In this document: one piece after another, positions 27,861-47,455 of the stretch
Layout of the letters: each line of letters begins with the position of its first letter
How positions within the stretch are numbered: position 1 is the stretch's first letter
From: a virus
Lineage: Duplodnaviria > Caudoviricetes
IMG/VR virus record: IMGVR_UViG_3300030102_000228
Coordinates: 1 to 61,783 of that record
Direction: 5' to 3' (one strand)
Length of the DNA: 61,783 nt
Made by a program: the position numbers and the translations under genes
Notes under the pieces: model-generated
Told to the model about the DNA's origin: nothing
The model's database searches: none
The model's input: the letters and a program-made list of their open reading frames with translations, nothing else

Positions 27861-27912
27861 TTGTTAGGGGATTGTCTAGCCTTAACTTCTTTTGTCATGA
27901 AAGGAAAAAGCT

Positions 27913-28464
27913 ATGACAAACTCTATCATTACAGACGGTATCTTGAACGCAATCCCTGTTGAAGTGAAGAAAGCATATCACGCCGACCAGTCGGCTGAGA
28001 AAGCTTTTGTCAAAAAACGGGGCGCGTTTATTGACTTGTGTTACTCTCTCAACATTCGGTCAAACATGGTTCAGTCTCCAAAGACTGGCGGCATGATTAC
28101 CGAAGAGGCATTCGAGGAACTGAATGCTATGATTGTTAGCGAATTTCCAGCTAATGAACAGAAGCTATTGGCTATGCCTGCCAAGGCGGTTCCAGAAGGT
28201 CGTAAAGATGTGAGGAAACAACTTCAGCAGAAGATTGGTTCCAAGCGGAAAGACCTAAAGAATGCTCTCAAGAGGCGTGAAGAGTTACACGCCCAAGGCA
28301 AAGGGGCGGACACTATCCGCACCAGAACATCTGAAGAGATATTGGCAAACTCTCTCACAGATGCCTTGAAGAGAGTGCAAACTCTTGAGGAACCGACTTT
28401 CGATGTTGAGGCTTTTGTTGAACACATCGAGGCGGCTCAGGAAGTCATGAAACAAGGTCTGTAA
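27913..28464 (+). CDS. First early gene, hypothetical helical protein
   Basis: 183 aa; RBS GAAAGGAAAAAG. Confidence 0.8.
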   Translation: MTNSIITDGILNAIPVEVKKAYHADQSAEKAFVKKRGAFIDLCYSLNIRSNMVQSPKTGGMITEEAFEELNAMIVSEFPANEQKLLAMPAKAVPEGRKDVRKQLQQKIGSKRKDLKNALKRREELHAQGKGADTIRTRTSEEILANSLTDALKRVQTLEEPTFDVEAFVEHIEAAQEVMKQGL

Positions 28465-28473
28465 ACAACTTAG

Positions 28474-28509
28474 GGCGAGGCAGTCAGACTGCCTCGCCTG
28501 TCTCTTTTT
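28474..28509 (+). terminator. Stem-loop, possible terminator
   Basis: GGCGAGGCAGT/ACTGCCTCGCC stem followed by TCTCTTTTT. Confidence 0.55.
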
Positions 28510-28523
28510 GGAAAGGAAAAATC

Positions 28524-28850
28524 ATGAAACTATCTGACAGTGAAAATCAACTTGCAACTTCTGGTATTACTCAAGAGGAATTGGAAGATTGGTTATCTAA
28601 ATCTGAAGAGACTGGCTCTTACCGAGGCTACGGTCGTCATACTATTGCTATGGCACTGCTAGCTAAGATTGAGGCTAACCAAAGAATAGCTGATATGAAC
28701 AAGGCAATGGCTGAGTCACTAGAAGAGATTGACCTAGCCGAATTGGATAAGGTCAACGAAAAATGGAAACGTGCTAACTCTAGTTGGTTAGAACGGTATA
28801 AGACTGTTGATGAGAAACGAAAGAAGTTGATGTACTACTTATCTCTATAA
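28524..28850 (+). CDS. Second early gene, hypothetical
   Basis: 108 aa; RBS GGAAAGGAAAAA. Confidence 0.8.
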   Translation: MKLSDSENQLATSGITQEELEDWLSKSEETGSYRGYGRHTIAMALLAKIEANQRIADMNKAMAESLEEIDLAELDKVNEKWKRANSSWLERYKTVDEKRKKLMYYLSL

Positions 28851-28857
28851 CAAATTT

Positions 28858-28887
28858 AGGCAGGGCTTTTTAGTCCTGCCTTTTTTT
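28858..28887 (+). terminator. Rho-independent terminator
   Basis: AGGCAGGGC-ttttta-GTCCTGCCT plus T-run. Confidence 0.85.
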
Positions 28888-28904
28888 GTGCCAAAATTTT
28901 GGCT

Positions 28905-29064
28905 GAAGCCAGTTCCCAGTGCCGCGTTGAGTCCAGGCGGATTCGGTATTGCCCACGCACACAAAGAAGTTAGGGAATTCCCTAACCCACAACGAAGCCA
29001 GTTCTCAGTGCCGCGTGGAGTCCATGCCTGTGGCGATGCCAGTTCTCGATGCCGCGTGTAGCCA
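28905..29064 (+). repeat. Three ~31-bp direct repeats GAWGCCAGTTCYCRRTGCCGCGT
   Basis: Copies at 28905, 28994 and 29035. Confidence 0.85.
28969..28986. repeat. 18-bp palindrome copy 2
   Basis: Exact. Confidence 0.95.
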
Positions 29065-29396
29065 ATGTTCTAAATGTTCCGTTGAATGTTCCAGAATGTT
29101 CTTTTTTATTTCAGCAAAAACGTACATTATGTTTTCGTGGTAAATCGTGACAAGGCGTGTTGGGCAAAGGTTTCCTGTGTTAGGGAATTCCCTAACTCGT
29201 AGGTGTATATATATAATGTTCTTTTTTTAAATTATTACTATCCCAGATTAAATTGACCAGAACAAGTTATGGTATGTACGCTTTTCTGTTCACCTACCTG
29301 TGGCGAGGTATCTACTTCTTAAATCACGGAACATTAGAACATTGTAAGTTTTACAGTGAGTTACTCAGCTACATTTTACGAACAATAGCGAACAAT
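29064..29396. other. Putative replication origin: converging AATGTTC/GAACATT iterons around AT-rich DNA
   Basis: AATGTTC at 29064, 29073, 29085, 29095, 29215; GAACATT at 29329, 29337; GAACAAT at 29380, 29390. Confidence 0.45.
29179..29196. repeat. 18-bp palindrome copy 3
   Basis: Exact. Confidence 0.95.
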
Positions 29397-29433
29397 ACAC
29401 AGCTTGGCACTATATACCACCATTTGTTATTAT

Positions 29434-29462
29434 TTGACATTTAATCACACTTGTAGTATAAT
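29434..29462 (+). promoter_or_regulatory. Consensus sigma70 promoter
   Basis: TTGACA (29434-39), 17 bp spacer, TATAAT (29457-62). Confidence 0.9.
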
Positions 29463-29468
29463 ATAAAG

Positions 29469-29516
29469 ATAGTGAGAGATTGGCTCGTTTTTTCCTTTCA
29501 TGGCCTCTCTCACTAT
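29469..29516 (+). ncRNA. Leader hairpin with anti-Shine-Dalgarno loop (candidate antisense RNA)
   Basis: 11-bp stem ATAGTGAGAGA/TCTCTCACTAT; loop TTTTTCCTTTCATG complementary to 27896-27909. Confidence 0.6.
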
Positions 29517-29549
29517 ACACCACAACACGTTGTCAAGAGGAGACATACA

Positions 29550-30485
29550 ATGACATCGCAAACAAACACACTGGTTACAACACCAACCAATGTTAGGGAA
29601 TTCCCTAACTCCACCGAAACTGCACCGACACTATCTTCTAGTGCCATGCTTGTTGAGTTATCCGTCTCATGTTGGACAGGACGCAAGAAAGACAAGCGTG
29701 CGTCACAAGACGTTACTGCAAGCAACGGTGCGGATGATGGCGTTGCTAATGTTCACAAGAAGCTACTTGCTGATTGCGAAGAATTGGTAGCGATACAAAA
29801 GTTTGTCGGTAACGTGCGTAACATACATTACGCATCTACACTGGCATGGTCAGACACTGGACTGCGCCTGTTACCAACAACAGCGTACTTTAAGTATCAC
29901 CAACAGATGACCGAATTGCAGACAGAGTTCTTCCGTTTGGAAAACATCTTTTCCTCTGGATACGATTGGGTTGTTACTCAAGCACAGGCCAAGCTAGGTA
30001 GCTTATGGGTTGCTGACGACTATCCAACTGTTGAAAGCATACGCAAGAAGTTTGGTTTCCGTCTGTCGTACATACCGTTGCCCGAAGCTGGTGACTTCCG
30101 TATTGATGTCGGTAATGAGGCCATGACACAAATCAAGTCTGAGTATCAGGCATTTTACGAGCGCACTTTCAACACAGCTATGAAGGACGTATGGCAACGT
30201 GTTTATGACGCATTGTCTCGTATGTCTGAGCGATTGGATTATTCTGACACTGAGAAGAAGCGTGTGTTTCGTGATACGCTAGTCAGCAACGCAACCGACT
30301 TGATTGACCTATTGGATATTTGCAACGTGTCACAAGACACACAAATGTCTGCACTGAAACTACAGTTAGAGGAGACACTATCTGGTGTCACACCTGATGG
30401 CTTGCGTGATGACGAGTACCTACGCAAGCAGACCAAAGCCAACGTGGACAGCATCATCGCAAACCTTCCCTCGTTGGATATATAA
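29550..30485 (+). CDS. DUF3150-like protein
   Basis: Start MTSQTN with AAGAGGAG RBS; LSVSCWTGRKKD...KKLL...YPTVESIRKKFGF pattern; upstream of AAA/vWA pair. Confidence 0.55.
   Translation: MTSQTNTLVTTPTNVREFPNSTETAPTLSSSAMLVELSVSCWTGRKKDKRASQDVTASNGADDGVANVHKKLLADCEELVAIQKFVGNVRNIHYASTLAWSDTGLRLLPTTAYFKYHQQMTELQTEFFRLENIFSSGYDWVVTQAQAKLGSLWVADDYPTVESIRKKFGFRLSYIPLPEAGDFRIDVGNEAMTQIKSEYQAFYERTFNTAMKDVWQRVYDALSRMSERLDYSDTEKKRVFRDTLVSNATDLIDLLDICNVSQDTQMSALKLQLEETLSGVTPDGLRDDEYLRKQTKANVDSIIANLPSLDI
29592..29609. repeat. 18-bp palindrome copy 4 (inside CDS)
   Basis: Exact; read as VREFPN. Confidence 0.95.
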
Positions 30486-30503
30486 GTTAGGGAATTCCCT
30501 AAC
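30486..30503. repeat. 18-bp palindrome copy 5
   Basis: Exact; immediately after TAA. Confidence 0.95.
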
Positions 30504-30530
30504 ATCAACCTTTGTCAAATGGAGAACAAA

Positions 30531-31625
30531 ATGACAAATCAAGCAATCCAAATGTATGCACTTAACCTTGACCAAATCACACAGGCTATCAAGGCCAACG
30601 GTCACAAACGCACAATGCTTGTGCAAGGCCACATGGGTACAGGTAAGTCATCAATCCTTAACGTGTTATCACAAGAGTTACCTAATCATATACCGTGTTA
30701 CTTTGATTGTACCACCAAAGATTTGGGTGACGTTATGATACCGAAGATGAGCGAAGCCGAAGGCAAAGACTATGTGGCTTTTGCGCTCAACGAAGAACTT
30801 GGTGTACATCATGGCAAGCCAGTCATCCTCATGATTGATGAGTATGGCAAGGCAAACCCTGCGGTCAAGAACGCACTGTTACGTCTTATGTTGGAGCGCA
30901 AGACAGGCGGTCACACACTACATCCAGACAGCATCGTGTTTGCTACAACAAATTTGGGTGCAGAGGGTGTCGGTGACTTGTTACCACCTCATGCTCGTAA
31001 TCGTATCGCTGTCGTTACTTCACGCAAGCCAAGCAATACCGAATGGATTGAATGGGGTATCAACAACGAGATTGACCACAGCTTGCTCGGTTGGTGTAAA
31101 GACAACCCACAACTGTTTGCATCTTTTGATGAGGTCAAAGACCCTGACGAAAACCCGTACATCTTTCATCCAAAGACACAACGTGCGGCATTCGTTACAC
31201 CTCGCTCATTGGAAGCTGCATCTGATTGGTTGAAACAACGTGCCTCTTATGATGACCAGACACTTACGGCTGTTCTCATGGGTACGATTGGTGAGCGTGG
31301 CGCAATGGACTTGATGGCGTTTGTCAAGATGTCTGACCAACTACCAACTTTGGAAAGCATCAAGACTGACCCGAAAAATGCCAAAGTGCCTGACAGTGCC
31401 GCCGCAGTTTGTATGGTTGTGTATCGCACACTAGCAAGTTTGGACAAGGATTGGGTCAATCAATGGATGGACTATCTTGTTCGTCTCGACAAAGAGGCAC
31501 AGGGTATGTTTGCCAATGGCGTACGCAATCCGAAGTATTCCAAGCAGTCACTTGTTATGACCAACAAGAAGTTTACTGAATGGGCTATGCAGAACAACTA
31601 TATGTTTGCGGCAGACAAAGCATAG
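30531..31625 (+). CDS. MoxR-like AAA+ ATPase
   Basis: Walker A GHMGTGKS; Walker B ILMIDE; sensor ATTN; TPRS. Confidence 0.85.
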   Translation: MTNQAIQMYALNLDQITQAIKANGHKRTMLVQGHMGTGKSSILNVLSQELPNHIPCYFDCTTKDLGDVMIPKMSEAEGKDYVAFALNEELGVHHGKPVILMIDEYGKANPAVKNALLRLMLERKTGGHTLHPDSIVFATTNLGAEGVGDLLPPHARNRIAVVTSRKPSNTEWIEWGINNEIDHSLLGWCKDNPQLFASFDEVKDPDENPYIFHPKTQRAAFVTPRSLEAASDWLKQRASYDDQTLTAVLMGTIGERGAMDLMAFVKMSDQLPTLESIKTDPKNAKVPDSAAAVCMVVYRTLASLDKDWVNQWMDYLVRLDKEAQGMFANGVRNPKYSKQSLVMTNKKFTEWAMQNNYMFAADKA

Positions 31626-31642
31626 TTAGGGAATTCCCTAAC
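31625..31642. repeat. 18-bp palindrome copy 6
   Basis: Exact; overlaps the stop codon. Confidence 0.95.
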
Positions 31643-31661
31643 TCAATCAATGGAGAATGAT

Positions 31662-32858
31662 ATGTTAGCAATAGGAAAAAATCTTACCACGGAACAACGG
31701 CTGTCAAAGGCCGTTGTCGATATCATGGCAAATCCAAAGTACATCGCACTCGCTGGTGTCCTCATGATTGGCAACCGTAGTATTGACAACACCAAAGCAC
31801 CGACAGCTTGCACCAACGGCAGAGACGAATGGTACAATTCCGAATTCGTTGACAAACTGTCTGACCCTCAACTGCGGTTTCTTGTCCTGCACGAAGTGTA
31901 CCACAAATTGTACAAGCACTTGATTACGTGGCAACATCTTTACAAGGACAACCCGAAGAAGGCCAACATCGCGTGTGACTATGTAATCAACATCAAGATT
32001 ACTGATGACAACAAAGATGGTTGGGCTGTCATGCCTGACGGTGGTTTCATCAACGAGAAGTATCGTGGCTGGGATAGTGCGGCAGTTTACGCTGACCTCG
32101 ATGACAACTGCGGTGGCGATGACAACGATGGTGATGACAGTGGCAATGGTCATGGTGGTTTCGATGAACACGATTGGGATGGCGCACAAGAACTGTCTGA
32201 CGCAGAAAAGCGTGACCTTTCTCGAGACTTGGATGAAGCAATCCGACAAGGTGCGCTCGTTGCTGGCAAGACTGGTTCTGGTGGTGACAGAGAACTTGCC
32301 GAGTTACTGCAACCACAAGTCAACTGGCGTGAGGTGTTACGTGAATTCGTGACAACAACTTGTCAGGGAAGCGACTATAGTACCTGGGCCAGGCCTAATC
32401 GTAGATACATAGCAACAGGTTATTATATGCCAAGCGGTATCAGTGAGAAGGTAGATGAACTTGTCATCGCTGGTGATATGTCTGGGTCAATCGGACAGCA
32501 CGAAATATCTGTCATACTCACTGAGGCCAAGTCAATATGTGACACTGTGAAACCTGACAAGGTACGCATCTTGTATTGGGATACCAAAGTCTGTGCTGAT
32601 GAAGTCTACGAACAGCACGAACTGGATGATATGGTAAACTCCACCAAACCTGCTGGCGGTGGCGGTACAACTGTGTCTTGTGTTCCTGAATACATGACAG
32701 ACAAGAACATCACACCACAAGCTGTTATCGTGATTACTGACGGTTATCTTGGTAGCGACTGGGGTAGCTGGTCTTGTCCTGTCCTGTGGGTAATCATCGA
32801 CAACAACACGATTGCACCGTCTGGTGTGACGCTTCATGTCAAAACCACTGACCTGTAA
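31662..32858 (+). CDS. DUF2201-type metallopeptidase + vWA-like protein
   Basis: PTACTNG; HEVYH (HExxH); NIACDYVIN; MIDAS DMSGS; GGGGT; ITDG. Confidence 0.85.
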   Translation: MLAIGKNLTTEQRLSKAVVDIMANPKYIALAGVLMIGNRSIDNTKAPTACTNGRDEWYNSEFVDKLSDPQLRFLVLHEVYHKLYKHLITWQHLYKDNPKKANIACDYVINIKITDDNKDGWAVMPDGGFINEKYRGWDSAAVYADLDDNCGGDDNDGDDSGNGHGGFDEHDWDGAQELSDAEKRDLSRDLDEAIRQGALVAGKTGSGGDRELAELLQPQVNWREVLREFVTTTCQGSDYSTWARPNRRYIATGYYMPSGISEKVDELVIAGDMSGSIGQHEISVILTEAKSICDTVKPDKVRILYWDTKVCADEVYEQHELDDMVNSTKPAGGGGTTVSCVPEYMTDKNITPQAVIVITDGYLGSDWGSWSCPVLWVIIDNNTIAPSGVTLHVKTTDL

Positions 32859-32862
32859 CAAA

Positions 32863-32880
32863 GTTAGGGAATTCCCTAAC
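32863..32880. repeat. 18-bp palindrome copy 7
   Basis: Exact; intergenic. Confidence 0.95.
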
Positions 32881-32899
32881 TTCACCTATGGAGGACGTA

Positions 32900-33406
32900 A
32901 TGGGCTATCGCTCAGAAGTATTCATCGCTGTCGCACTGCCAACCATTCCTGTTTTGTCGGAACTGGTTTCTGTGTATGCCATCGACCCTCGAGTTCAAAA
33001 ATGTCAGACCGTTGAGGACTGGTTGTTGAAAGAACAGGAATATCCAAACGGAAGTCGGTACGGTGGGCCATTTTACACCATGACTTATCACCACGAACAT
33101 ACCAAATGGTATGACGCATACGATGACGTTGGGGCTTTCATGCACCTCGGCAAACTATGTTCAACCTTTGCAGAAGAACGTGGTGATATGTTCTCATACG
33201 CATACAGATTTTGTCGCATCGGAGAGGAGCATGGCGACATAGAAGTAGACTCGCATGAGTCAGAAGATGGTCTGGGTCAAGCCATGTCTGATGAACTAAA
33301 TGACCTAGTGTATCCTGTGCAGATGTTGGAGATTGTCAACAGAGGTACAGATTGTCGACTAAACATAACCCCAAGTGGGTCTTTGCAAATCCAAAGAGGA
33401 GAATAA
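32900..33406 (+). CDS. Hypothetical protein
   Basis: MGYRSEV...KWY...FCRIGEE; GGAGG RBS. Confidence 0.75.
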   Translation: MGYRSEVFIAVALPTIPVLSELVSVYAIDPRVQKCQTVEDWLLKEQEYPNGSRYGGPFYTMTYHHEHTKWYDAYDDVGAFMHLGKLCSTFAEERGDMFSYAYRFCRIGEEHGDIEVDSHESEDGLGQAMSDELNDLVYPVQMLEIVNRGTDCRLNITPSGSLQIQRGE

Positions 33407-33408
33407 AA

Positions 33409-34458
33409 ATGGCATTATATTATTTCAACCACATCAAATTTTCTGAGGTGGAAAGACTTTATGACAGCACCAAGCCTGTCGTATCCAAGAACCACAGTAA
33501 GGCTGATGACGTTAGACCCATCGGGGACAGGAGACGTAAGTGGGAACGTGTAAAGAAGATATCACCTGACTGCTATCTGTTTCTTGATGGTTGTTACGGT
33601 GATGATGTATTCGGAGTGAGCGTGTGGAATCCTGACTACAAGGGAGCAACCCAAGAAGAAGTGGTTGCCTTTGCACCTATCAAGTGGGAGCGCAAATCAT
33701 GTGGTAACGAGTTTGTATCAATACGCAACGGTATTGGAGACTACGCACACACTGGACGCTATCAATTCATAAGTCGCAACCTACCAACAGGTTTGAGATT
33801 TATTGTACGGAATGGCAAGCAATTCGTATGTAACGACAGCAACTCGTATTATCTGCCCAAAGGCAAAGACATACCGAAGTCTTTGTATGAATACCGAAAG
33901 TCGCAAGGATATCGAAATGCTGAGAATGTGGAAACGTACACTCACGACCCACGAAACGCAGAGCTAGTATTCATGCGTGTAAACAACTCATGGCGTCTTG
34001 CACAAGACGAACACGCTCTGCCGAAACCACCTCGTACCTTGGTCAACAAACAACTCAAGGACAAATACAAGAAGGACATCGAGAAGTTTCGTGAGTACGT
34101 GTTTTCTATTGCACCTATGTTTGACACATCATCGGGGCAGGTTGGTTGGCACAACTACAACTGGGAGCAGAACAGGCAGATGAACACGGACTACCGTGAA
34201 GCGTGTGTAGAGGAGTTTCCAGATGTTGTCACACCAAACACGGGCAATATGCAACTAGACACCATTCCTGCAGAACTTGCAATACGTGTGATAAAGGACT
34301 ATAATAGTAAGATAAGATATTATCTTGCCTACCAGTTTGCGATACATTCTGATATTAGAAGTATCCAGACACAAGAAGATAGTAACAGAGTGAAGTCACA
34401 ATTCAATCGCTGGATAAACAAAATGTGTGGCTTTACCTACGTTGAAGACCGTAGTTAG
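33409..34458 (+). CDS. Hypothetical protein
   Basis: Start MALYYF with AAAGAGGAG RBS. Confidence 0.8.
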   Translation: MALYYFNHIKFSEVERLYDSTKPVVSKNHSKADDVRPIGDRRRKWERVKKISPDCYLFLDGCYGDDVFGVSVWNPDYKGATQEEVVAFAPIKWERKSCGNEFVSIRNGIGDYAHTGRYQFISRNLPTGLRFIVRNGKQFVCNDSNSYYLPKGKDIPKSLYEYRKSQGYRNAENVETYTHDPRNAELVFMRVNNSWRLAQDEHALPKPPRTLVNKQLKDKYKKDIEKFREYVFSIAPMFDTSSGQVGWHNYNWEQNRQMNTDYREACVEEFPDVVTPNTGNMQLDTIPAELAIRVIKDYNSKIRYYLAYQFAIHSDIRSIQTQEDSNRVKSQFNRWINKMCGFTYVEDRS

Positions 34459-34471
34459 GGAATTCCCTAAC
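34454..34471. repeat. 18-bp palindrome copy 8
   Basis: Exact; supplies the TAG stop of the upstream gene. Confidence 0.95.
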
Positions 34472-34492
34472 TACTACAAAGAGGAGACTAAA

Positions 34493-35356
34493 ATGGCTAA
34501 TTACGAACCAATCCCTGTGAGCAGTGCAAAGAAAATGCACAGCAACACACCCGACAGTGTATTACCAGACGAACTTGTTGTGCTGTGTGACAGACTGCAA
34601 CGCGCGATGCGTGGCATAAAGTTTGCGAACAAAAGCAAAAACAAAATCTGGTGTTACTTACCTAATCATCCGTTGACCATTGGTTACATTACATACGGTC
34701 AGCTACAGGATGACACAACCAATCGCTTGTGGGGTATTGTCTCGCATACCATAGACAATGGTAAGTATTCCGAATACAGAGTGGAGCGCAGAACTAAAAT
34801 GACTAGCAAGCTGGAGACAGCAGTGAAGCTGGCTAAGAAGTTTATGCGTCCTCACACTCTGCTTGAACTCAACAAGTACGCAAAGTCTGATATGACTTAC
34901 GAACTGTCGAAGTTGGCAAGCGATGCTAGAGACACCGCCACTACCGCTATACGCACTATCGGTGAGGATACTTTGTGGGCAGAGTTAAAGCGTCTATACC
35001 AGACTGACCATGAGTTTCATGACCCAACACTGCGTGACAAGTTAACACAAATGTACGAAGCTGAAGCACGAGCATCTCAGATAAAAGAAAAGTACAAGAC
35101 AGGTAACGGACTGCGTATGGCATTTGTCAACATATCGGAGTCTGTGTCGGGTCAACGGTTTGAATGTGCTGAAGTCAAACGCCCCACAAGTAGTTGGGAA
35201 CATGAGTTTGAGGACACCCATGTTTACTATGGCAGTGACTTACCAGAACATCTTACTGGTGCAATCGCTGTTCTAAGTATGCTTGGAGACAAAGAGTTTG
35301 TTGAGGGTGTCGGTTTCAAATGCAGTGACACTATGTACTATGTCGAACTACCTTAG
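34493..35356 (+). CDS. Hypothetical protein
   Basis: Start MANYEP with AAAGAGGAG RBS. Confidence 0.8.
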   Translation: MANYEPIPVSSAKKMHSNTPDSVLPDELVVLCDRLQRAMRGIKFANKSKNKIWCYLPNHPLTIGYITYGQLQDDTTNRLWGIVSHTIDNGKYSEYRVERRTKMTSKLETAVKLAKKFMRPHTLLELNKYAKSDMTYELSKLASDARDTATTAIRTIGEDTLWAELKRLYQTDHEFHDPTLRDKLTQMYEAEARASQIKEKYKTGNGLRMAFVNISESVSGQRFECAEVKRPTSSWEHEFEDTHVYYGSDLPEHLTGAIAVLSMLGDKEFVEGVGFKCSDTMYYVELP

Positions 35357-35630: not shown

Positions 35631-35805
35631 AGTAAAAAACAGAGCAAGAGTTACAAGCGTTATTCTGGGTGGGGCATTAGTTTATTTTCTAATTGCCATG
35701 ACAGCCCTGTTTTGGTTTGACTGGCTCTGGATGTTGGGTGTCGAAGAAAGTCAACGCTACACATGGTGGGGCGTGATTTATGGATTATCCAACGGTGGTT
35801 GGTAG
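35614..35805 (+). CDS. Small membrane protein
   Basis: Long hydrophobic, Trp-rich segment. Confidence 0.65.
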   Translation: MRMMDRVKNRARVTSVILGGALVYFLIAMTALFWFDWLWMLGVEESQRYTWWGVIYGLSNGGW

Positions 35806-35822: not shown

Positions 35823-35831
35823 TTTTGAATA

Positions 35832-37354: not shown

Positions 37355-37371
37355 CCAAAATGGAGAATAAC

Positions 37372-39728: not shown

Positions 39729-40387
39729 GTGAAAAGTGGTCTTTCAGCAGGCTTAAATCTTTTGAGCAATGTCCGAAACAGTTTTATCATGTCAAGGTTG
39801 CTAAAGAATATGAAGAACCTGAGACTGAAGCTATGCTTTATGGTTCTGAGTTTCACAAGGCTTGCGAAGATTACGTCAGGGATAGAGTATCTATCCCAAA
39901 GAAATTTGCTTACATAATAAATACCTTAGACGCTTTGATTGCCAAACAAGGTGAGAAGCTGTGTGAATATAGGATGGGAGTAACGAAAGATTTAGAGCCT
40001 TGTTCTTTCTTTGCCGAAAATGTCTGGTGGCGTGGCATAGCAGATTTGGTTATACTTAACGGAGAAGAAGCTACCGTCATAGATTATAAAACGGGAAAGT
40101 CTACTAGGTACGCAGACAAAGGACAGCTAGAACTTATGGCTCTGGCTACATTCAAACACTTCCCTGTAGTTAAGAAAGTAAAAGCAGGGCTTTTGTTTGT
40201 TGTCTGTAACGAGTTAATACGTGATAGCTACACTGCGGATCAGCAGCCAGACCTTTGGAAGAAGTGGATTAATAAATATGGTGTGCTGGAAGCGGCTTTT
40301 AAAAATAACGTATGGAACCCAAATCCTAGTGGGCTATGCCGCAGACACTGTGTAGTATTAGAATGTCCACATAATGGGAGAAGCTGA
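39725..40387 (+). CDS. PD-(D/E)XK (Cas4-like) exonuclease
   Basis: SFSRLKSFEQCP...GIADL...IDYKTG...QLELM...C-terminal Cys cluster. Confidence 0.85.
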   Translation: MSEKWSFSRLKSFEQCPKQFYHVKVAKEYEEPETEAMLYGSEFHKACEDYVRDRVSIPKKFAYIINTLDALIAKQGEKLCEYRMGVTKDLEPCSFFAENVWWRGIADLVILNGEEATVIDYKTGKSTRYADKGQLELMALATFKHFPVVKKVKAGLLFVVCNELIRDSYTADQQPDLWKKWINKYGVLEAAFKNNVWNPNPSGLCRRHCVVLECPHNGRS

Positions 40388-40644
40388 TGCCCTATACAAA
40401 ATCAAAACGCCCGTACAAGAAAGAGTACCAACAGCAGAAGGCTAGGGGCGAACATGAAAACAGAATGGAACGTCAGCGAGCAAGACGTAAGCTGGACAAG
40501 AAGGGTGTCAAGCGTAAAGGCAAAGACGTAGCCCACAACAAAGCGTTGAGTAAAGGTGGTTCTAACAAAGATGGGGTAAGACTGCAAAGCCGAAAGAGGA
40601 ACAGGGCGGCTGGCGGTAGAATGAGTAGCCCGAAGAAAGCTTAG
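40387..40644 (+). CDS. Small basic HNH-like protein
   Basis: GKDVAHNKALSKGGSN...NR. Confidence 0.6.
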   Translation: MPYTKSKRPYKKEYQQQKARGEHENRMERQRARRKLDKKGVKRKGKDVAHNKALSKGGSNKDGVRLQSRKRNRAAGGRMSSPKKA

Positions 40645-40657
40645 GGAATTCCCTAAC
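40640..40657. repeat. 18-bp palindrome copy 10 (17/18)
   Basis: CTTAGGGAATTCCCTAAC; supplies the TAG stop. Confidence 0.9.
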
Positions 40658-40671
40658 ACTTGGAGATAAGA

Positions 40672-42207
40672 ATGGAATTGTATCAAGATAAAGCTGTTGT
40701 GTTACGACTTCGGCATCCAGAGAAAGTTACGACACTACTGCCAGAAAGCACACCTCTACTCGATGGACGGTTGGCTGTAAAGTGGGGTGTTGAAGAAACG
40801 CAGACCCTAAATTATTTAGGTATAAACGTACCTTCACCTATTATAAAAAAGTATGCGTGGACTGGTAAGCATAAACCATTTGTGCATCAGCGAGATACGT
40901 CAGCTTTTCTTACACTCAACAAACGAGCCTTTTGTTTCAACGAACAGGGTACTGGCAAGACAGCCAGTGCTATCTGGGCGGCTGACTTTTTAATGAAGCA
41001 GGGAGCCGTACGCAGAGTTTTAGTTGTATGCCCTCTGTCTATAATGCACTCCGCATGGAAAGATGATTTGTTTACTTTTGCCATGCACAGAAAGGTTGAC
41101 ATAGCCCACGGTGCGCCAGCAAAGCGTAAGAAGATTATAGAGTCTGATGCTGAGTTTGTTATCATAAATTATGATGGTGTAGAGATAGTCGAAGATGCCG
41201 TAGCTTCTGGTAACTTTGATTTGATAATCGTTGACGAGGCTACACACTATAAGAATGCACAAACAAAAAGGTGGAAGACCTTAAACAGATTGGTCACACC
41301 TGATACTTGGCTGTGGATGTTGACAGGCACACCTGCCGCACAATCACCTTTGGATGCTTATGGCATAGCAAAACTTGCTAATCCTAATTCTGTGCCACGG
41401 TTCTTTGGTTCTTTCAGAGACATGGTGATGTGGAAGATATCGCAATTTAAATGGATACCGAAAGAGAACGCCACAGACATTGTGTTTCATGCGTTACAAC
41501 CAGCCATACGATTTACAAAAGACCAGTGCCTAGATTTACCACCTATGACTTATGTGAAGCGGCAAGTCGAACTGACACGACAGCAAAAGAAGTATTACGA
41601 AACACTCAGAAAGAAGTTGATAGTACAGGCCGCTGGCGAAGAGATAACAGCCGCTAATGCAGCAGTGCAGATGGGTAAACTCCTACAAATATCTTCTGGT
41701 GCGGTATATACGGACGGCGGAGAAGCATTGGAGTTTGACATCAAAAACCGTTACCAAGTGTTACGAGAAGTGATTGACGAAAGCAGTAAGAAAGTTCTGG
41801 TGTTTGTGCCTTTCAAACACACTATCGATGTGCTGACTGAAAAACTACGTAAGGACGGCATAACCACTGAGGTCATCCGAGGTGATGTATCCGCCAACAA
41901 ACGCACAGAAATATTCGACCACTTTCAAAACAAAGAAGACCCGAAAGTTTTGGTTATTCAACCACAGTCTGCGGCTCATGGTGTTACGTTAACAGCTGCC
42001 AACACTGTTGTATGGTGGGGGCCGACAAGTTCTTTAGAGACGTATGCACAAGCGAATGCCAGGGTGCATCGATCTGGGCAGACACATAAATGTACTGTGG
42101 TGCAGTTACAAGGTTCTGCCATCGAGAAACGTGTTTACGCATTATTAGATAATAGAATAGACGTACACACAAAAATGATTGATCTTTACAAAGAAATACT
42201 TGACTAG
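40672..42207 (+). CDS. SNF2-like superfamily 2 helicase
   Basis: EQGTGKT; IVDEAT; LTGTP; HGVTLT; QANARVHRSGQ. Confidence 0.9.
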   Translation: MELYQDKAVVLRLRHPEKVTTLLPESTPLLDGRLAVKWGVEETQTLNYLGINVPSPIIKKYAWTGKHKPFVHQRDTSAFLTLNKRAFCFNEQGTGKTASAIWAADFLMKQGAVRRVLVVCPLSIMHSAWKDDLFTFAMHRKVDIAHGAPAKRKKIIESDAEFVIINYDGVEIVEDAVASGNFDLIIVDEATHYKNAQTKRWKTLNRLVTPDTWLWMLTGTPAAQSPLDAYGIAKLANPNSVPRFFGSFRDMVMWKISQFKWIPKENATDIVFHALQPAIRFTKDQCLDLPPMTYVKRQVELTRQQKKYYETLRKKLIVQAAGEEITAANAAVQMGKLLQISSGAVYTDGGEALEFDIKNRYQVLREVIDESSKKVLVFVPFKHTIDVLTEKLRKDGITTEVIRGDVSANKRTEIFDHFQNKEDPKVLVIQPQSAAHGVTLTAANTVVWWGPTSSLETYAQANARVHRSGQTHKCTVVQLQGSAIEKRVYALLDNRIDVHTKMIDLYKEILD

Positions 42208-42228
42208 CTAGCCAAACGTCACTATCTA
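42200..42228 (+). promoter_or_regulatory. Possible sigma70-like promoter
   Basis: TTGACT, 17 bp spacer, TATCTA. Confidence 0.4.
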
Positions 42229-42258
42229 TTAAGTATTAATGACAATTTGGAGAGCGTC

Positions 42259-42666
42259 ATGAGTAAAGAGCAAGGTGGTATTCCTATCGATAAACTAACA
42301 AAAACATTCATTAAGATTAGAACTAAACGTGCTGAGTTGGTTGCTAATTTTAAGGAAGAAGAAGAAATTCTTGTCCAGCAAATGGATAAGATTAAGAAGG
42401 CTCTTTTAGCCTATTGCAAAGAGCATGGGGTAGAGAGCGTTAAGACTTCTGAAGGTGTGTTTTATAGAACGACTAAAGCTAGATACTGGACTAATGACTG
42501 GGAGCAGATGCACAAGTTTATCCTTGAGCATCAAGTGCCTGAGTTATTAGATAAGCGTCTAAATCAGTCCAACATGAAACAATTTTTGGAAGAAAACCCA
42601 GAAGTAGTACCCAAGGGTCTAAACGTGGACTCTGAGTACGTAGTATCAGTGAGGAAGAAATCATGA
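42259..42666 (+). CDS. Hypothetical replication-module protein
   Basis: Coiled coil then SVKTSEG...DWEQMHKFI. Confidence 0.75.
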   Translation: MSKEQGGIPIDKLTKTFIKIRTKRAELVANFKEEEEILVQQMDKIKKALLAYCKEHGVESVKTSEGVFYRTTKARYWTNDWEQMHKFILEHQVPELLDKRLNQSNMKQFLEENPEVVPKGLNVDSEYVVSVRKKS

Positions 42667-42938
42667 ACGCAGGTCCGTATGTGCCGATTGAAGAACTGGC
42701 AAAACATTTTTCTGTGTCCATATCCACTATTAGAATGTGGGTAAGGAACGGACACATACCAAAAGATACCTATGTAAACATAGGAAACACTTATCGATTT
42801 AATATTGATAATGTGGCTTCTGCTCTAACGAAATCAAATGCAAAAGAAGATAGCAATGATGACGTTGGTGAAAACGTAGTAGATTTTAAACCTGCTATGG
42901 CAGGGTTTCAACAATCTGAAATAGATGACGATATGTAG
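42663..42938 (+). CDS. Excisionase-like winged HTH DNA-binding protein
   Basis: IEELAKHFSVSISTIRMWVRNGHIP...IGNTYRF. Confidence 0.8.
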   Translation: MNAGPYVPIEELAKHFSVSISTIRMWVRNGHIPKDTYVNIGNTYRFNIDNVASALTKSNAKEDSNDDVGENVVDFKPAMAGFQQSEIDDDM

Positions 42939-42947
42939 GTAAACAAA

Positions 42948-43610
42948 TTGTTTAGTCGCATTAGTTTAAATGGTAACAAGTTCACCCAGTATGAGGATGG
43001 GAAAAGGACGCCCGTGGCAGACGATAGCATAAATGTAGTTATCGTTAGTTCGGCTCCTGTGTCTCGCACTTACTACAAAGGTGAATATGACCCTGATAGA
43101 ACAAGCCCACCTACTTGTTGGTCTGCAACTAATGCCAGCCCCTCTCCTGATGTGCCACCAGAGCAACGACAGTCTATTCGTTGTTTGGACTGTGTGCATA
43201 ATCACAAAGGTTCTGGTAGCGGTGGTGGTCGAGCGTGTAGGTTTGTTATGCGACTAGCTATAGCTTTAGAAGATGATTTGGATAAGATACATCAACTACA
43301 GTTACCAGCTACTTCAGTGTTTGGTGATGCAAAGAACGGTAATATGCCCATGCAAGCGTACTCTCGTCATCTACGCACTCACAAGACACCAGCCATATCT
43401 GTGGTAACAAATGTATATTTTGATGCTGATAGTTATGCACCAAAATTATTCTTCAAACCAATTCGTCCTCTAGAAGAAAATGAGTTGGGTCTCGCTCATG
43501 AGTTGGCTAGCCAACAACAAACTACTGAGGCCATATCAATGTCAATGCCTGTAAAAAGGCCAAACTTTGCGGAAGTAAATGGGTTTGTTTACACCGCAAA
43601 TGCAAACTAG
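42948..43610 (+). CDS. Hypothetical Cys-containing replication protein
   Basis: PTCWS...CLDC...GSG..GRACRF. Confidence 0.7.
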   Translation: MFSRISLNGNKFTQYEDGKRTPVADDSINVVIVSSAPVSRTYYKGEYDPDRTSPPTCWSATNASPSPDVPPEQRQSIRCLDCVHNHKGSGSGGGRACRFVMRLAIALEDDLDKIHQLQLPATSVFGDAKNGNMPMQAYSRHLRTHKTPAISVVTNVYFDADSYAPKLFFKPIRPLEENELGLAHELASQQQTTEAISMSMPVKRPNFAEVNGFVYTANAN

Positions 43611-43621
43611 GAGAGACTTAA

Positions 43622-44278
43622 ATGTCTGAAACATATTTTATAAGTAATGTATCTGCTTTGTACCCTAAGATAGATAAAACATATAAGTTTGACCGTAAGA
43701 CAAATCGGTCAGTGGGGTGCAAGCCAACGGATGATGGTTCTGAATATTCTGTCAGCTTCAAGATGGATAAGGCAACGGCTAAGTCTTTGTGGGCGTATAT
43801 GAAAGAAGCATACGCTGAAGAAAGAAAAGAAGATTGGCCCGAAGATATAACTCGCCCATTCAAAGAAGAAGATGGTTTGTTTATACACAAAGCCACTTTG
43901 AAGGGGGCTTATAACGGAGAGGCAACAAGGAAGCCCACACAGGTTGATGCCAAAACAAATCAGCTTCCTGATGATTTTCAGTTAACTACAGATAGCATCA
44001 TTAATGTAGCTGTAGCTGGCAAGCCATATAGCGGTGACATGGGAGCAGGTGTTTCATTACGCTTGCAGGGTGTGCAGGTTGTAAAACTTGAGCCAATGAA
44101 AGCTAGATCACCGTTTAGTGCAGTAGACGGATTTGACTCCAAAGAGGGTAACGTGTTTGCACAAAGCCAACCTGATTCCACTGAGGTGGAAGAACCAAAG
44201 AAGGTCGTCAAAAAGTCCTCGCCAAAACCTGATGATAATGACGACTTGAGTAGTATTGTTGACGATTGGGATGACTAA
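43622..44278 (+). CDS. Single-stranded DNA-binding protein (T7 gp2.5-like)
   Basis: GVSLRLQGVQVVKL; acidic C-terminus ending DDWDD. Confidence 0.7.
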   Translation: MSETYFISNVSALYPKIDKTYKFDRKTNRSVGCKPTDDGSEYSVSFKMDKATAKSLWAYMKEAYAEERKEDWPEDITRPFKEEDGLFIHKATLKGAYNGEATRKPTQVDAKTNQLPDDFQLTTDSIINVAVAGKPYSGDMGAGVSLRLQGVQVVKLEPMKARSPFSAVDGFDSKEGNVFAQSQPDSTEVEEPKKVVKKSSPKPDDNDDLSSIVDDWDD

Positions 44279-44297
44279 TCTATAAAGTACTACTCTG

Positions 44298-44335
44298 CCA
44301 CGGCATGGTTTTTTATCATTTTCTCCATGCCGTGG
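44298..44335 (+). ncRNA. Hairpin with anti-SD/anti-AUG loop
   Basis: 11-bp stem CCACGGCATGG/CCATGCCGTGG; loop TTTTTTATCATTTTCT(CC). Confidence 0.45.
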
Positions 44336-44355
44336 TATCTTTTGGCGAGGATATT

Positions 44356-47163
44356 ATGGACACAAACGAATTTTTTCACAGAGTACTTGCCCCTGATGGG
44401 TATTACTGTCTGTTCGCTATCGACACAAACAACGATAAGCGTGTGCAGAAGTTTTATCCAACTAAGGCAGACATATTAGATGCGGCACATAACTTAGACC
44501 AAAACGGATATGACGCATACTTTGCACTCGCTACCTTTGAAGAGGACAACTCTCGTAAGGTAGACAACGTAAAACAACTTAAGTCTTTCTTTCTTGATTT
44601 GGACTGCGGTCCTAGCAAAGATTTTGCGACACAGCATGAAGCTGTTATGGCGTTACGTAGCTTCTGTTCACAGAATAATTTACCTAAACCTACTTTGGTT
44701 AACTCTGGGCGTGGGGTACACGTATACTGGTTCTTAAAGGACGCAGTGAGCCTCTCTGAGTGGCTACCTGTTGCTGAGAGGCTAAAGAAGTTATGCGCAG
44801 AGTGTAACTTGTTAGCTGACCCTGCTGTGACCTCTGACGGGGCTAGAGTTTTAAGAGTACCCTTTACTCATAATCATAAGGCTGACCCACCTGCTTTGGT
44901 ACAGTTTTTCGGTAGAGAGCCGTCAAAACCTGTAGATGTAGATTATTTTTCTGGGTTGCTTGGTTTGGATACGATACCAGTTCCGAATGCCATCGGACAT
45001 TCTAGTAGCAGTGCGCTCATGGATGCGCTCAATAGCAACAAGAAATGTGTGTTTAAAGATATTTTGGTAAAGACACAAGCTGGCAAAGGTTGCGCGCAGT
45101 TAAAATACCTAGTCACAAATCAGGAAGAAACTAGCGAACCATTATGGAGAGCGGGGCTTTCAATAGCCAAGTTCTGTGAAGACGGCGACAAGGCTGCTCA
45201 TGCAATATCTAAACATCATTCTGAGTATTCTCCTCATGCTACCATAAAAAAGCTAGACCTTATAAAAGGTCCGTATACCTGTGTTAAGTTTGATGAGTTT
45301 AATCCTGACGTATGTCAAGACTGTCCAAACTGGGGTAAAATTAAATCACCGATCACGCTTGGGCAGAAAATAAGAGAGTCCGAACCAAACGCTGTAGTGT
45401 TTGAAGATGTATCTGAGGAACCAAAACAGTATGACATACCCGCATTTCCTCGACCATATTTTCGTGGTGCAAAGGGCGGAGTGTATATGCGCACAGTAAA
45501 CGCTGACGGGGACGCGGATGAGAAGATGGTGTATCATAACGACTTATATGTTATGCGCAGACTCCGAGATCCTGAGCTGGGAGAAGCTGTAGTAATGCGG
45601 TTGCACCTACCACAAGATGGTATGCGAGAGTTTACTATACCTCTTACATCTGTAACTTCTAAGGAAGAGTTTCGCAAAGCTATGGCTATGGAAGGCGTAG
45701 CACTAACTAGGATGGATGAACTTATGACGTATGTCACCTCATGGGTAAACGAACTACAAACCACAACTAAGGCCGAAAAAGCACACAGGCAGTTTGGTTG
45801 GGCAGACGAAGATTGCTCATCGTTTGTATTAGGAGACAAAATAATATTTGCTGATAAGGTAGAACAGAACCCACCTACATCTCATACAGCAGGCTTGATA
45901 CCGTCTTTTAGCCCGAAAGGTGACATGGACACTTGGAAAGAGATGTTAAATTTCTATAACAAAGATGGGTTTGAGCTTCATCAGTTTGTCGTTGGGGCCG
46001 CATTTGGCTCTGTTTTAATGGAGCTGTCACCAATACACTGTGCTGGCATACATCTGTACGGCAAGTCAGGGGTAGGTAAAACTACAGCCATGCAAGCTGG
46101 GCTTAGTCTATGGGGTAATCCAGAGACGTTACTGACCGACAGAAACGATACGCACAATACTCGTATGCACAGAGGTGAGGTATATCATAGTCTGCCTTTG
46201 TATATGGACGAACTTACTAACGCAAAGCCGTGGGAGTTATCTGATTTAGTTTACCAGCTAACAGGTGGCAAACAACGTGGGCGTATGACAAGCGGTAGTA
46301 ACACAGAACGCTATCGTGGAGAGCCATGGAAGTTGCTAGCCGTGACTTCAGCTAATGCTAGTATGTGGGAAAAGATAAGCATGGCTAAATCTATGCCGAC
46401 AGCAGAGGCACAGAGAGTCCTCGAGTGCAACGTGCAGAAGGTAGCATTGCCGCCCAAAGAAGACACAGACATACATATAGACAGAGTGAAGTCTAACTAC
46501 GGGCTCGGCGGACTAACGTACATACAACACATAATAAAAAATTTAGACGAAGTACGTCAGCTGATAAGCCAGGTACAGTCACGTATTGATGATAAAGCTG
46601 GGCTTGAAGCAGAAAATAGGTTCTGGTCTGTGGCTGGCACTATGCCAATCGTAGGAATACTTATAGCAAAACAGCTGGGCTTCGTTGACTACGATGTAAA
46701 GAAGTTGTTTGCGTGGGTAGTTGCGCTGCTTGAGCAGAACAAGCGTGGCGTAAATGATATGGACGCATCTGTTGAGCAGACTTTGAATGACTACATACAT
46801 GAGCATTGGGGTAATGTCCTGTGGATTAAAAGCACTGACGATTTACGTGGTAAGAGTGTAGATAACGGTGGGCTAGATACGTTGATCACGCCAGAGATAC
46901 TTCCAAGGGGCAAGCTGGTAGCACGATACGAAACAGATGTGAAGCGGGCATACCTTCTGCCAAAACCATTGAAAGCGTGGTGCGTAGACCAACAGATACA
47001 CTACGGTATGTTTTTGGCTGACTTAAAAAACAAATTAGGTGCAGAACGTAAGAAAGTTCGGTTGAGTAAAGGTACGAATATGAGCCTTCCACCTACAGAG
47101 TGCTATGTCGTTCATTGTGATATTGAGGGTGTAGATGAGACAGGGAGTGCTGAAGAAGCATGA
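44356..47163 (+). CDS. Primase-helicase (AEP/RepB-like primase + Cys-rich CTD + DUF927 helicase)
   Basis: FLDLD; SGRGVHVYW; RVLRVP; Walker A GKSGVGKTT; MDE. Confidence 0.85.
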   Translation: MDTNEFFHRVLAPDGYYCLFAIDTNNDKRVQKFYPTKADILDAAHNLDQNGYDAYFALATFEEDNSRKVDNVKQLKSFFLDLDCGPSKDFATQHEAVMALRSFCSQNNLPKPTLVNSGRGVHVYWFLKDAVSLSEWLPVAERLKKLCAECNLLADPAVTSDGARVLRVPFTHNHKADPPALVQFFGREPSKPVDVDYFSGLLGLDTIPVPNAIGHSSSSALMDALNSNKKCVFKDILVKTQAGKGCAQLKYLVTNQEETSEPLWRAGLSIAKFCEDGDKAAHAISKHHSEYSPHATIKKLDLIKGPYTCVKFDEFNPDVCQDCPNWGKIKSPITLGQKIRESEPNAVVFEDVSEEPKQYDIPAFPRPYFRGAKGGVYMRTVNADGDADEKMVYHNDLYVMRRLRDPELGEAVVMRLHLPQDGMREFTIPLTSVTSKEEFRKAMAMEGVALTRMDELMTYVTSWVNELQTTTKAEKAHRQFGWADEDCSSFVLGDKIIFADKVEQNPPTSHTAGLIPSFSPKGDMDTWKEMLNFYNKDGFELHQFVVGAAFGSVLMELSPIHCAGIHLYGKSGVGKTTAMQAGLSLWGNPETLLTDRNDTHNTRMHRGEVYHSLPLYMDELTNAKPWELSDLVYQLTGGKQRGRMTSGSNTERYRGEPWKLLAVTSANASMWEKISMAKSMPTAEAQRVLECNVQKVALPPKEDTDIHIDRVKSNYGLGGLTYIQHIIKNLDEVRQLISQVQSRIDDKAGLEAENRFWSVAGTMPIVGILIAKQLGFVDYDVKKLFAWVVALLEQNKRGVNDMDASVEQTLNDYIHEHWGNVLWIKSTDDLRGKSVDNGGLDTLITPEILPRGKLVARYETDVKRAYLLPKPLKAWCVDQQIHYGMFLADLKNKLGAERKKVRLSKGTNMSLPPTECYVVHCDIEGVDETGSAEEA

Positions 47164-47362
47164 TCTAAACCCTGACGGGGTAAGGATTGTGATAAATTGG
47201 GATAATATGACTGTAGGCTCATCTGTATTCGTACCGTGTGTTGATACCGAAAAGGCTACAAAACAAGTTGATAAGGTCGTTGCCGAAATGGGTTGGGATG
47301 TAAAATATAGAGTCCGAATAGAAGATAATAAATTAGGACTTCGTATATGGAGGTTTTTGTGA
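47135..47362 (+). CDS. Small hypothetical protein
   Basis: WDNMTVGSSVFVP...GLRIWR. Confidence 0.7.
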   Translation: MRQGVLKKHDLNPDGVRIVINWDNMTVGSSVFVPCVDTEKATKQVDKVVAEMGWDVKYRVRIEDNKLGLRIWRFL

Positions 47363-47380
47363 TAACTTTACGTTGACAGC

Positions 47381-47420
47381 ACCTATCCTCCTCTTTTAGG
47401 TCATGTCGTTCTCCAAGTGG
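47381..47420 (+). ncRNA. Candidate anti-SD small RNA at 3' end of the replication operon
   Basis: Loop TCCTCCTCTTT and segment TCATGTCGTTCTCCAAGTG complementary to several phage RBS-ATG regions. Confidence 0.55.
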
Positions 47421-47455
47421 CCCCCTACTGTTTTGCGATGGCAGTAGGGGGTTTT
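47421..47455 (+). terminator. Terminator at the convergence of the two arms
   Basis: CCCCCTACTG/CAGTAGGGGG stem plus TTTT. Confidence 0.8.

Follow-up and report, generated by a model that had tools for sequence, protein, structure and literature searches.

Phages that lack an RNA polymerase of their own are usually thought to time the expression of their genes with proteins, be they repressors, anti-sigma factors or nucleases. Could RNA do the same work? The question is raised by a 61,783-bp contig of an uncultured marine phage (IMG/VR record IMGVR_UViG_3300030102_000228; Duplodnaviria; Caudoviricetes), which in its entirety is the window analysed here, and in particular by four plus-strand hairpins (H1 to H4) within its early block of replication genes. 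An earlier note on this DNA had proposed that the pyrimidine-rich loops of these hairpins act against Shine-Dalgarno (SD) sequences, each loop silencing one class of ribosome-binding site (RBS) among genes expressed before it, so that successive transcripts would form a temporal cascade. All four hairpins do fold where they were placed, with loops of 11 to 18 nucleotides (nt), and the RBS strings of the three classes directly precede the ATGs assigned to them. The cascade itself is not supported: the four hairpins prove to be four different elements, and the broader idea of an RNA directed at the phage's own RBS classes gains comparative support for none of the loops but for one other element, a short single-stranded linker immediately 3' of H4.

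This linker lies at the 3' end of the operon, where the stop codon of p75 (47360-47362) is followed in turn by H4, the linker and an intrinsic terminator, the layout of an RNA derived from a 3' untranslated region (3'UTR). Its parts, and the two best matches of the linker, are:

47375-47407, plus strand: H4, GACA..ACCUA(UCCUCCUCUUU)UAGGU..UGUC, after the last plus-strand gene
47408-47420, plus strand: linker GUUCUCCAAGUGG, single-stranded, candidate anti-RBS seed
47421-47455, plus strand: intrinsic terminator, a 10-bp GC-rich stem followed by UUUU, at the junction with a convergent gene for a protein of 2246 amino acids (aa)
40657-40666, plus strand: CACUUGGAGA, RBS region of the SNF2 helicase gene (ATG at 40672), a 10-nt perfect complement of 47410-47419
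30520-30527, plus strand: UGGAGAAC, RBS of the AAA-ATPase gene (ATG at 30531), an 8-nt complement of the linker

H4 itself folds at -9.6 kcal/mol (z -3.10), with one of 200 shuffles as good. Downstream of the p75 homologue in relatives, 39 distinct sequences from 74 loci were compared, and 37 of them keep the order of hairpin, CU-rich linker and terminator. In most (24/39), GACAG-loop-CUGUC leads into G(U)UUCUCC and then a terminator (variant A); ten combine another stem with a CUCCCC loop and the tail CCCCUCUC; three have GACAG-GAAAUAA-CUGUC followed by ACUCUCC; and the last two are of other kinds, among them L080, where a CU-rich stretch and terminator stand without a hairpin. The GACAG/CUGUC stem and a CUCC-containing loop are retained in relatives (CUCC in 20 of the 24 variant-A sequences, counted by hand), and in the consensus fold of 17 sequences GUUCUCC is left unpaired and hardly varies. 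The linker is the best-conserved noncoding motif in the relatives even though identity between the flanking proteins is only ~60%, and elements of its type are present in many marine viral contigs. A small open reading frame (ORF) across H4 was rejected as an explanation, being unconserved in relatives when read by eye. A search of viral contigs for the pattern GACAG..CTGTCGTTCTCC gave 91 hits and was set aside, as by a rough guess chance might yield a similar number. An invariant TGATA at the p75 stop may be a -10-like box, giving the 3' module a promoter of its own, or may simply be tandem stops.

What might such a linker pair with? Start regions were taken from a rough in-house gene call, in which a conserved gene at ~35298 was initially missed and from which three spurious ORFs were removed; the list holds 72, comprising 25 early regions on the plus strand and 47 late regions on the minus strand. 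Perfect complements to the linker of at least 7 nt occur in 7/25 early and 0/47 late start regions, with 6 of 2000 linker shuffles reaching the 10-nt maximum and 7 of 2000 reaching the count of seven regions. The underlying string GGAGAA begins 10-17 nt before six early starts and before no late start. In relatives, no 7-mer is more frequent than GGAGAAC in the start regions of phages whose linker is GUUCUCC (25 of 182 unique regions, or 25/184 with slightly longer windows), whereas it occurs in none of 107 unique start regions from loci with the CCCUCUC tail and in only one of 43 from those with an ACUCUCC linker. In this last clade it is GGAGAGU that is found, in 4/43 start regions, against 0/184 in the GUUCUCC and 1/107 in the CCCUCUC groups, and it sits on the homologues of the SNF2 gene and of gene 42259, which bear GGAGAAC in the GUUCUCC clade. 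Between GUUCUCC/GGAGAAC and ACUCUCC/GGAGAGU, both partners have therefore changed, at two positions. Matching also extends to the 3' side of the linker in a lineage-specific manner, over 10-11 nt in the SNF2 genes of L018, L023, L026 and L028 (UAGGAGAACG) and in the genes for the single-stranded DNA-binding protein (SSB) of L017, L018, L023 and L025 (CAUUAGGAGAA), L004 (UAGGGAGAACG) and L016 (AUAGGAGAACG), and over 9 nt in the SNF2 gene of L059 (AGGGAGAAC). When only the seven bases after CUCC were permuted among 21 flank types, the observed score of 1.67 stood against 1.18 +/- 0.14, with 17 of 10,000 permutations as high; an unselected permutation across all gene families with 17 linker types gave 7.94 against 7.16 +/- 0.25, with 9 of 5000 as high. 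Of the proposed RBS classes, it is the TGGAGA class that gains comparative support, with the linker, which co-varies with RBSs in relatives, rather than any loop as its candidate partner.

We regard the chances as evenly poised that the locus holds four different hairpin elements together with an operon-end linker that acts as an anti-RBS RNA and exerts delayed feedback on the replication genes. The block from 27.9 to 47.4 kb would be transcribed by the host, and H4, the CU-rich linker and the terminator would form a conserved module of ~90 nt at the 3' end of the operon, acting from within the long mRNA or after being processed into a 3' fragment. It is the linker and not the H4 loop that would pair with the 'GGAGAA(C)' RBSs of a subset of early genes, with the SNF2 helicase, the SSB-like protein, a DUF6378 protein and gene 42259 as proposed targets, and the AAA ATPase and a DUF2201 protein as further ones in this phage. 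Since transcription would arrive at the module only after traversing the ~18-kb operon, such negative feedback on translation would be delayed. Accumulation of this RNA and repression through pairing are what we infer from the structure, conservation, complementarity and co-variation observed in the sequences. If this holds, the phage would possess a compact, protein-free timer or feedback device in which a seed at the end of an operon matches the private RBS 'dialect' of that operon, and the sequence of an RBS beyond its GGAG core could be shaped by a regulator and not by the ribosome.

Several observations weigh against this proposal. Pairing of a CUCC/GGAG core is expected from any anti-SD-like string, and the four 'target' families were chosen after the matches had been seen, a choice from which the flank-only and all-family tests are free. 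The permutations ignore phylogeny, and the switch from GUU to ACU was probably a single event. Permutation of longest matches within the GUUCUCC clade was not significant (761/5000), duplex energies of whole elements with their own start regions (-14.57, n=312) and with foreign ones (-14.11, n=1835) do not separate, ranking of targets with RNAduplex over 12-20 gene families put no family consistently on top, and the clade with the CCCUCUC tail shows no consistent target. The stem of H4 is nearly invariant and offers almost no structural co-variation, five loci leave no room for any element downstream of the p75 homologue, the terminator of this phage has only four U, and no RNA run is listed among the sequencing runs that contain the phage sequence.

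Much of this would be expected were there no RNA-RNA regulation at all, with H1 a 5' stabiliser, H2 and H3 local structures, H4 and the linker a terminator region, and purine-rich SD sequences meeting pyrimidine stretches by their composition. Such an account would also explain why the H4 loop fits its own and foreign start regions equally well, why the loops of H1 and H3 are not conserved in relatives, and why the loop matches of H2 and H3 fall within those of shuffles (207/2000 and 1748/2000). It sits less easily with the conservation of the linker amid divergent proteins, with the double change of linker and RBS in two homologous genes and the flank test, with the asymmetry between early and late genes, and with the 14-nt match of the H1 loop and the repeated motif GAAAGGAAA described below, and we consider it unlikely, though a contender to be taken seriously. 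A purely local role for the linker, in a helix with the GGAGAAC found in the C-terminal codons of p75, is disfavoured because that GGAGAAC stays unchanged in the clade whose linker has become ACUCUCC. We rate the conserved element beside H4 as a credible new regulatory RNA candidate with about as much speaking for it as against it. Should the element prove non-functional, three of the four 'anti-SD hairpins' would still have ordinary explanations, and the locus would serve as a reminder that pyrimidine-rich loops matching SD sequences should not be taken for regulators where comparative support is absent.

In regulatory logic, the closest counterpart of the proposed linker RNA would be the c4 antisense RNA of phages P1 and P7. 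This RNA is cut out of its transcript. As described in PMC12197685, c4 shares strand and operon with its target, pairs with the RBS region of the phage's own mRNA and blocks translation. The linker is likewise phage-encoded, and both it and its best matches (40657-40666 and 30520-30527) lie on the plus strand of one block. The likeness has its limits: c4 is located upstream of its target, uses loops and acts in an immunity region, whereas the linker is a single-stranded seed at the 3' end that would strike several upstream genes of an apparently lytic replication module. A scan with Rfam, whose library is assumed to include the c4 model, gave no c4-type match at gathering score in the window and none at E<=1 in 27700-47600.

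In architecture, by analogy, the module comes closest to the bacterial small RNAs (sRNAs) derived from 3'UTRs, of the CpxQ, DapZ and SroC type, which share with it the succession of stop codon, hairpin, conserved single-stranded seed and intrinsic terminator, with the seed as the best-conserved part. Those are host RNAs, usually dependent on Hfq, that act on unlinked mRNAs; the module belongs to a phage and its predicted targets lie in its own operon. From virulent Pseudomonas phages, noncoding RNA candidates derived from 5'- and 3'UTRs have been reported, with no function attached to them in the part of that report drawn on here (PMC10914365). Our literature search, with supplements outside its scope, returned no account of a lytic phage with an anti-RBS element at the end of an operon.

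CU-rich motifs complementary to SD sequences are also familiar from RNAIII and RsaE of Staphylococcus aureus and from the alphaproteobacterial CcsR, in which the motif is repeated in loops, and from icaR, in which a 3'UTR motif pairs with the RBS on the same mRNA. The linker resembles all of these in being an unpaired CU-rich stretch complementary to GGAG-type SD sequences, and is likened to them by type of motif alone: in RNAIII, RsaE and CcsR the motif stands in loops, whereas here the H4 loop carries no target-specific signal and the linker does. Shut-off of a class of early mRNAs through recognition of a GGAG RBS is known from phage T4, whose RegB endoribonuclease is a protein nuclease; here the recogniser would be RNA.

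If the linker carries the comparative signal, what are the loops? That of H4 complements the AAGAGGAG RBSs of genes 33409 and 34493 over 9 nt and that of gene 29550 over 8 nt, as the class-by-class scheme had it, and five start regions with at least 8 nt are reached by only 7 of 2000 shuffles. One of the five is the late gene 15571 (8 nt), however, and the CCUCC loop shows no difference between own and cross start regions in relatives and no co-variation, so that class-specific targeting falls away and the loop is best described as a generic anti-SD sequence.

The case of H1 is more striking. The features that bear on it are:

29434-29462, plus strand: sigma-70 promoter TTGACA-17-TATAAT, a 12/12 match and the sole perfect one in 27600-47550
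29469-29516, plus strand: H1, with the 11-nt unpaired loop UUUUUCCUUUC at 29489-29499
27891-27920, plus strand: start-region hairpin of gene 27913, with the 8-bp stem TTTGTCAT/ATGACAAA
27899-27909, plus strand: RBS GAAAGGAAAAA of gene 27913, within the loop of hairpin 27891-27920
27897-27910, plus strand: 14-nt complement of the H1 loop, in the start region of gene 27913
28511-28521, plus strand: RBS GAAAGGAAAAA of gene 28524, matched by the H1 loop over 11 nt and by the H2 loop over 10 nt

H1 folds at -20.0 kcal/mol (z -5.18; none of 200 shuffles as good) and begins 7 nt past the -10 box of the sole 12/12 promoter, which places it at the 5' end of the main transcript. Its loop is a perfect complement of the gene 27913 start region over 14 nt and of that of gene 28524 over 11 nt, and none of 2000 loop shuffles reaches 14. 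The start-region hairpin of gene 27913 presents the RBS in its own loop, a predicted geometry that would suit loop-loop pairing. A start-region hairpin of the form TTTGTCA-N14-TGACAAA, with the RBS in its loop and the ATG in its stem, is in fact common to two early genes (27891-27920 and 30511-30538), and gene 29550 has a weaker version of it.

In relatives the match dissolves. Fifty non-redundant regions upstream of DUF3150 homologues were compared, 28 of them with a promoter of at least 10/12, and 23 of these 28 have a transcript-initial hairpin (read by eye); the loops are unrelated, and most of them are not rich in pyrimidines. For 16 relatives, the fit of the 5'-hairpin loop to the phage's own start regions does not exceed that under permutation (5.38 against 5.48; 2248 of 3000 as high), and where a UUCCUUUC-like H1 loop is retained (L127-L132), the homologue of gene 27913 has CUGGAG. 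Across all loci, TCCTTTC falls in hairpin loops in 5 of 72 distinct occurrences and is not a family feature, and complements of H1- or H3-like loops in L128, L126, L045 and L052 amount to A/G-rich matches of 8-10 nt. With relatives' loops unrelated, their matches no better than permuted and the RBS itself different, the 14-nt match, as judged from these sequences, is non-random yet lineage-specific and unique to this phage. Most likely H1 is a leader or stability hairpin. Stabilising 5'-terminal stem-loops occur on bacterial and phage mRNAs, and H1 agrees with them in occupying the predicted first bases after a consensus promoter and in that relatives keep the hairpin while its sequence is free to vary; it is unlike ordinary ones in its unusually large, all-pyrimidine loop and in matching the RBS of another gene.

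The loop of H2 has a comparable affinity for the two GAAAGGAAAAA RBSs, with a weaker case:

35832-35867, plus strand: H2, a 9-bp stem with the 18-nt loop UUUUUGUGUUUCCUUUCC; it leads a row of three hairpins in a lineage-specific insert

Its fold reaches -15.2 kcal/mol (z -2.40; 4 of 200 shuffles as good), and its loop complements the RBSs of genes 28524 and 27913 over 10 and 9 nt, the former length being attained by the 207 shuffles already mentioned. ORFs of the insert (35631-36644) have no homologue in loci that contain both neighbouring genes, apart from partial hits to gene 36198 in three loci, and at the position of H2 the relatives have other hairpins, whose loops are not CU-rich. The motif GATACCAGTT at 35953-35962 follows a hairpin; relatives share it, in one orientation or the other (ACTGGTATC), immediately ahead of the RBS of the conserved gene that comes next. 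In run X4, CTT is inserted behind 35900 in three contigs, at a point within the loop of the hairpin adjoining H2, and one long X4 contig stops at 35894 while the next starts at 35901.

H3 proves to be a different matter altogether, and is best viewed with the helix that encloses it:

44296-44337, plus strand: H3, a 13-bp stem with a 16-nt U-rich loop; it occupies the place of a structure that relatives conserve upstream of the primase gene
44215-44227, plus strand: 5' strand GUCCUCGCCAAAA of a 13-bp long-range helix, within the end of the SSB-like gene
44338-44350, plus strand: 3' strand UUUUGGCGAGGAU of that helix, in the primase RBS region

Although H3 is very stable (-23.7 kcal/mol, z -7.48; none of 200 shuffles as good), its true loop has no match to the TGGAGA class to which it had been assigned, 1748 of 2000 shuffles doing as well; the 8-nt ATGGAGAA match arises only when five bases of the 3' arm are added. 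UAUCUUUU directly follows H3, and the 158-nt region upstream of the primase has a minimum free energy of -64 kcal/mol (z -8.15), with the 13-bp helix around H3. An inverted repeat is found in 47 of 50 non-redundant regions upstream of primase homologues, mostly ending ~20-28 nt before the start codon, and because its 5' arms come in 34 different versions, structure is evidently kept while sequence changes. The enclosed part in relatives is usually a further hairpin with a pyrimidine fraction of 0.24-0.57, against 0.88 in this phage. On the predicted folds, a conserved cis structure with H3 at its core occludes the primase RBS, with 44215-44227 as the putative cis anti-SD of the primase gene, and translation of the primase would depend on ribosomes reading the upstream SSB-like gene, a form of translational coupling. 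At ~20-110 nt upstream of primase homologues in L001-L079, many H3-like stem inserts contain CCGAA(A/G), complementary to a conserved TCTYTCGG just past the stem; the two sequences suggest a pseudoknot before a primase start that lacks a clear SD.

Where does this leave a cascade of four loops, each silencing one RBS class of earlier genes? Much that it was built on is real, including the hairpins and RBS classes, the unpaired and pyrimidine-rich loops of H1, H2 and H4, the complementarity of H1 and H2 to both GAAAGGAAAAA RBSs, one of them displayed in kissing-loop fashion, the 8-9-nt matches of H4 to three AAGAGGAG RBSs and, over the 72 start regions, the less frequent complementarity of loops to late than to early RBSs. 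Complementarity beyond chance nonetheless holds clearly only for H1; in H3 the CUCC is partly in the stem, which is itself buried in cis structure, and the H4 loop matches the late gene 15571 as well. Nor does the proposed order, with later transcripts silencing earlier ones, agree with the map, as H1 is transcribed first from the main promoter and all four hairpins stand in one early block. In none of the four is a loop motif both conserved and matched to targets across the relatives: the H1 loop is not kept, the H2 insert is absent, the H3 loop is not kept either, and that of H4 does not co-vary. By the yardstick that its author set, that the loops should be conserved or co-vary with the RBSs, the cascade is already weakened, and we find it highly improbable. 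In a bolder version, a widespread family of uncultured ~60-kb marine phages would time replication by RNA alone, the operon-end seed shutting down replication genes of the GGAGAAC dialect after a delay set by transcription distance; in this phage the scheme would be extended by loop-kissing of H1 and H2 that silences the two GAAAGGAAAAA-RBS immediate-early genes, as one tier of a cascade by RBS class. This version is improbable too, if somewhat less so. No intrinsic terminator is listed for H1, H2 or H3 by the terminator scan, their loops being within the 11-18 nt range; the scan does list 28473-28499 and 28858-28881.

Might the repeated motifs be read in DNA instead? The H1 and H2 loops and their two partner RBSs share the motif GAAAGGAAA, which occurs five times in exact form where 0.55 copies are expected (no shuffle out of 100 gets to five) and is enriched on both strands:

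27899 and 28511, plus strand: GAAAGGAAA, in RBSs
29491 and 35849, minus strand: GAAAGGAAA, in the loops of H1 and H2

These copies, and GGAGAAC/GTTCTCC with them, could be double-stranded operators read in either orientation by a DNA-binding protein of phage or host, and the operator-like place of the H1 copy, 28-42 bases beyond the end of the -10 box (29462), would fit, as would the presence of other DNA-level repeats in the block and of a small protein with weak helix-turn-helix matches. Yet the plus-orientation copies keep a fixed RBS distance from start codons, the minus-orientation copies fall in predicted unpaired RNA segments flanked by stems, the linker has a stop codon on one side and a terminator on the other, and a DNA site would need no flanking inverted repeats. 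Operators are, to our mind, a decidedly improbable explanation.

Chief among those other repeats is a palindrome (18 bp with flanks) present in ten perfect copies against 0.02 expected, most of them directly upstream of early-gene RBSs:

27844, 28970, 29180, 29593, 30487, 31626, 32864, 34455, 35806 and 40641: palindrome TTAGGGAATTCCCTAA, 16 bp each

Relatives have variants of it at the same places (GTTAGGGAGATCCCTAAC, TTTAGGGAAATCCCTAAA, ATTAGGTAATTACCTAAT and TGTATACATATGTATACA), a pattern suggestive of a dimeric DNA-binding protein that co-evolves with them, or of a hairpin for RNA processing. A 91-aa protein encoded at 42663-42938 (plus strand) is kept in relatives and has weak HTH_17, MerR and CI-repressor-type matches, all below Pfam cut-offs, which make it a candidate for binding to the palindromes. 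A noncoding region of ~550 bp (28888-29345), with two terminators before it and the main promoter after it, contains three direct repeats of ~30 bp (GCCAGTTC.CAGTGCCGCGT.GAGTCCA.GC) and at least six AATGTTC/GAACATT repeats; in relatives this promoter is preceded by repeats of the GAACATTAC type. The region may be an origin or an array of regulator-binding sites.

The phage that carries these elements is present in marine metagenome runs and stands far from anything cultured. At the DNA level the region matched none of 50,697 phage records, and a search with the primase protein found only distant cultured relatives (best 28.7% identity), so that no annotated relative was usable as a guide. Contigs from four DNA runs are near-identical, with loops and RBSs unchanged, and hence offer no micro-diversity for a test of co-variation. 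The plus-strand genes from 27.9 to 47.4 kb constitute an early or replication block that encodes a DUF3150 protein, an AAA ATPase, a DUF2201 metallopeptidase/VWA protein, DNA polymerase A, a PD-(D/E)XK nuclease, the SNF2 helicase, an Enc34-like SSB and a DUF927 primase-helicase. Minus-strand flanks encode a terminase, a Mu-gpT-like capsid protein, SU10-type adaptors and a DarB-like protein of 2246 aa. The earlier note's view that the phage lacks both an RNA polymerase and a sigma factor of its own agrees with the Pfam scan, in which none of 45 proteins gave such a match, a divergent one being possible. Rfam likewise had no match at gathering score at the hairpins in the window, and none at E up to 1 in 27700-47600.

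Elsewhere in the window, Rfam recognises a Mu-gpT-DE RNA at 18566-18618 on the minus strand (68.8 bits against a gathering score of 49), which overlaps by three bases the first codon of the gene (start 18568) downstream of the Mu-gpT-like capsid gene. The 2246-aa protein (47458-54198, minus strand) has no Pfam hit, and its C-terminal third matches the PHROG 'DarB-like antirestriction' (E 7.7e-44). Repeats near the contig ends pair 554-572 with 61173-61191 and 1039-1071 with 61609-61641; terminal redundancy was ruled out, as the offsets are unequal and no bases are identical at offset 60619, and the repeats probably reflect paralogous large genes at the two ends.

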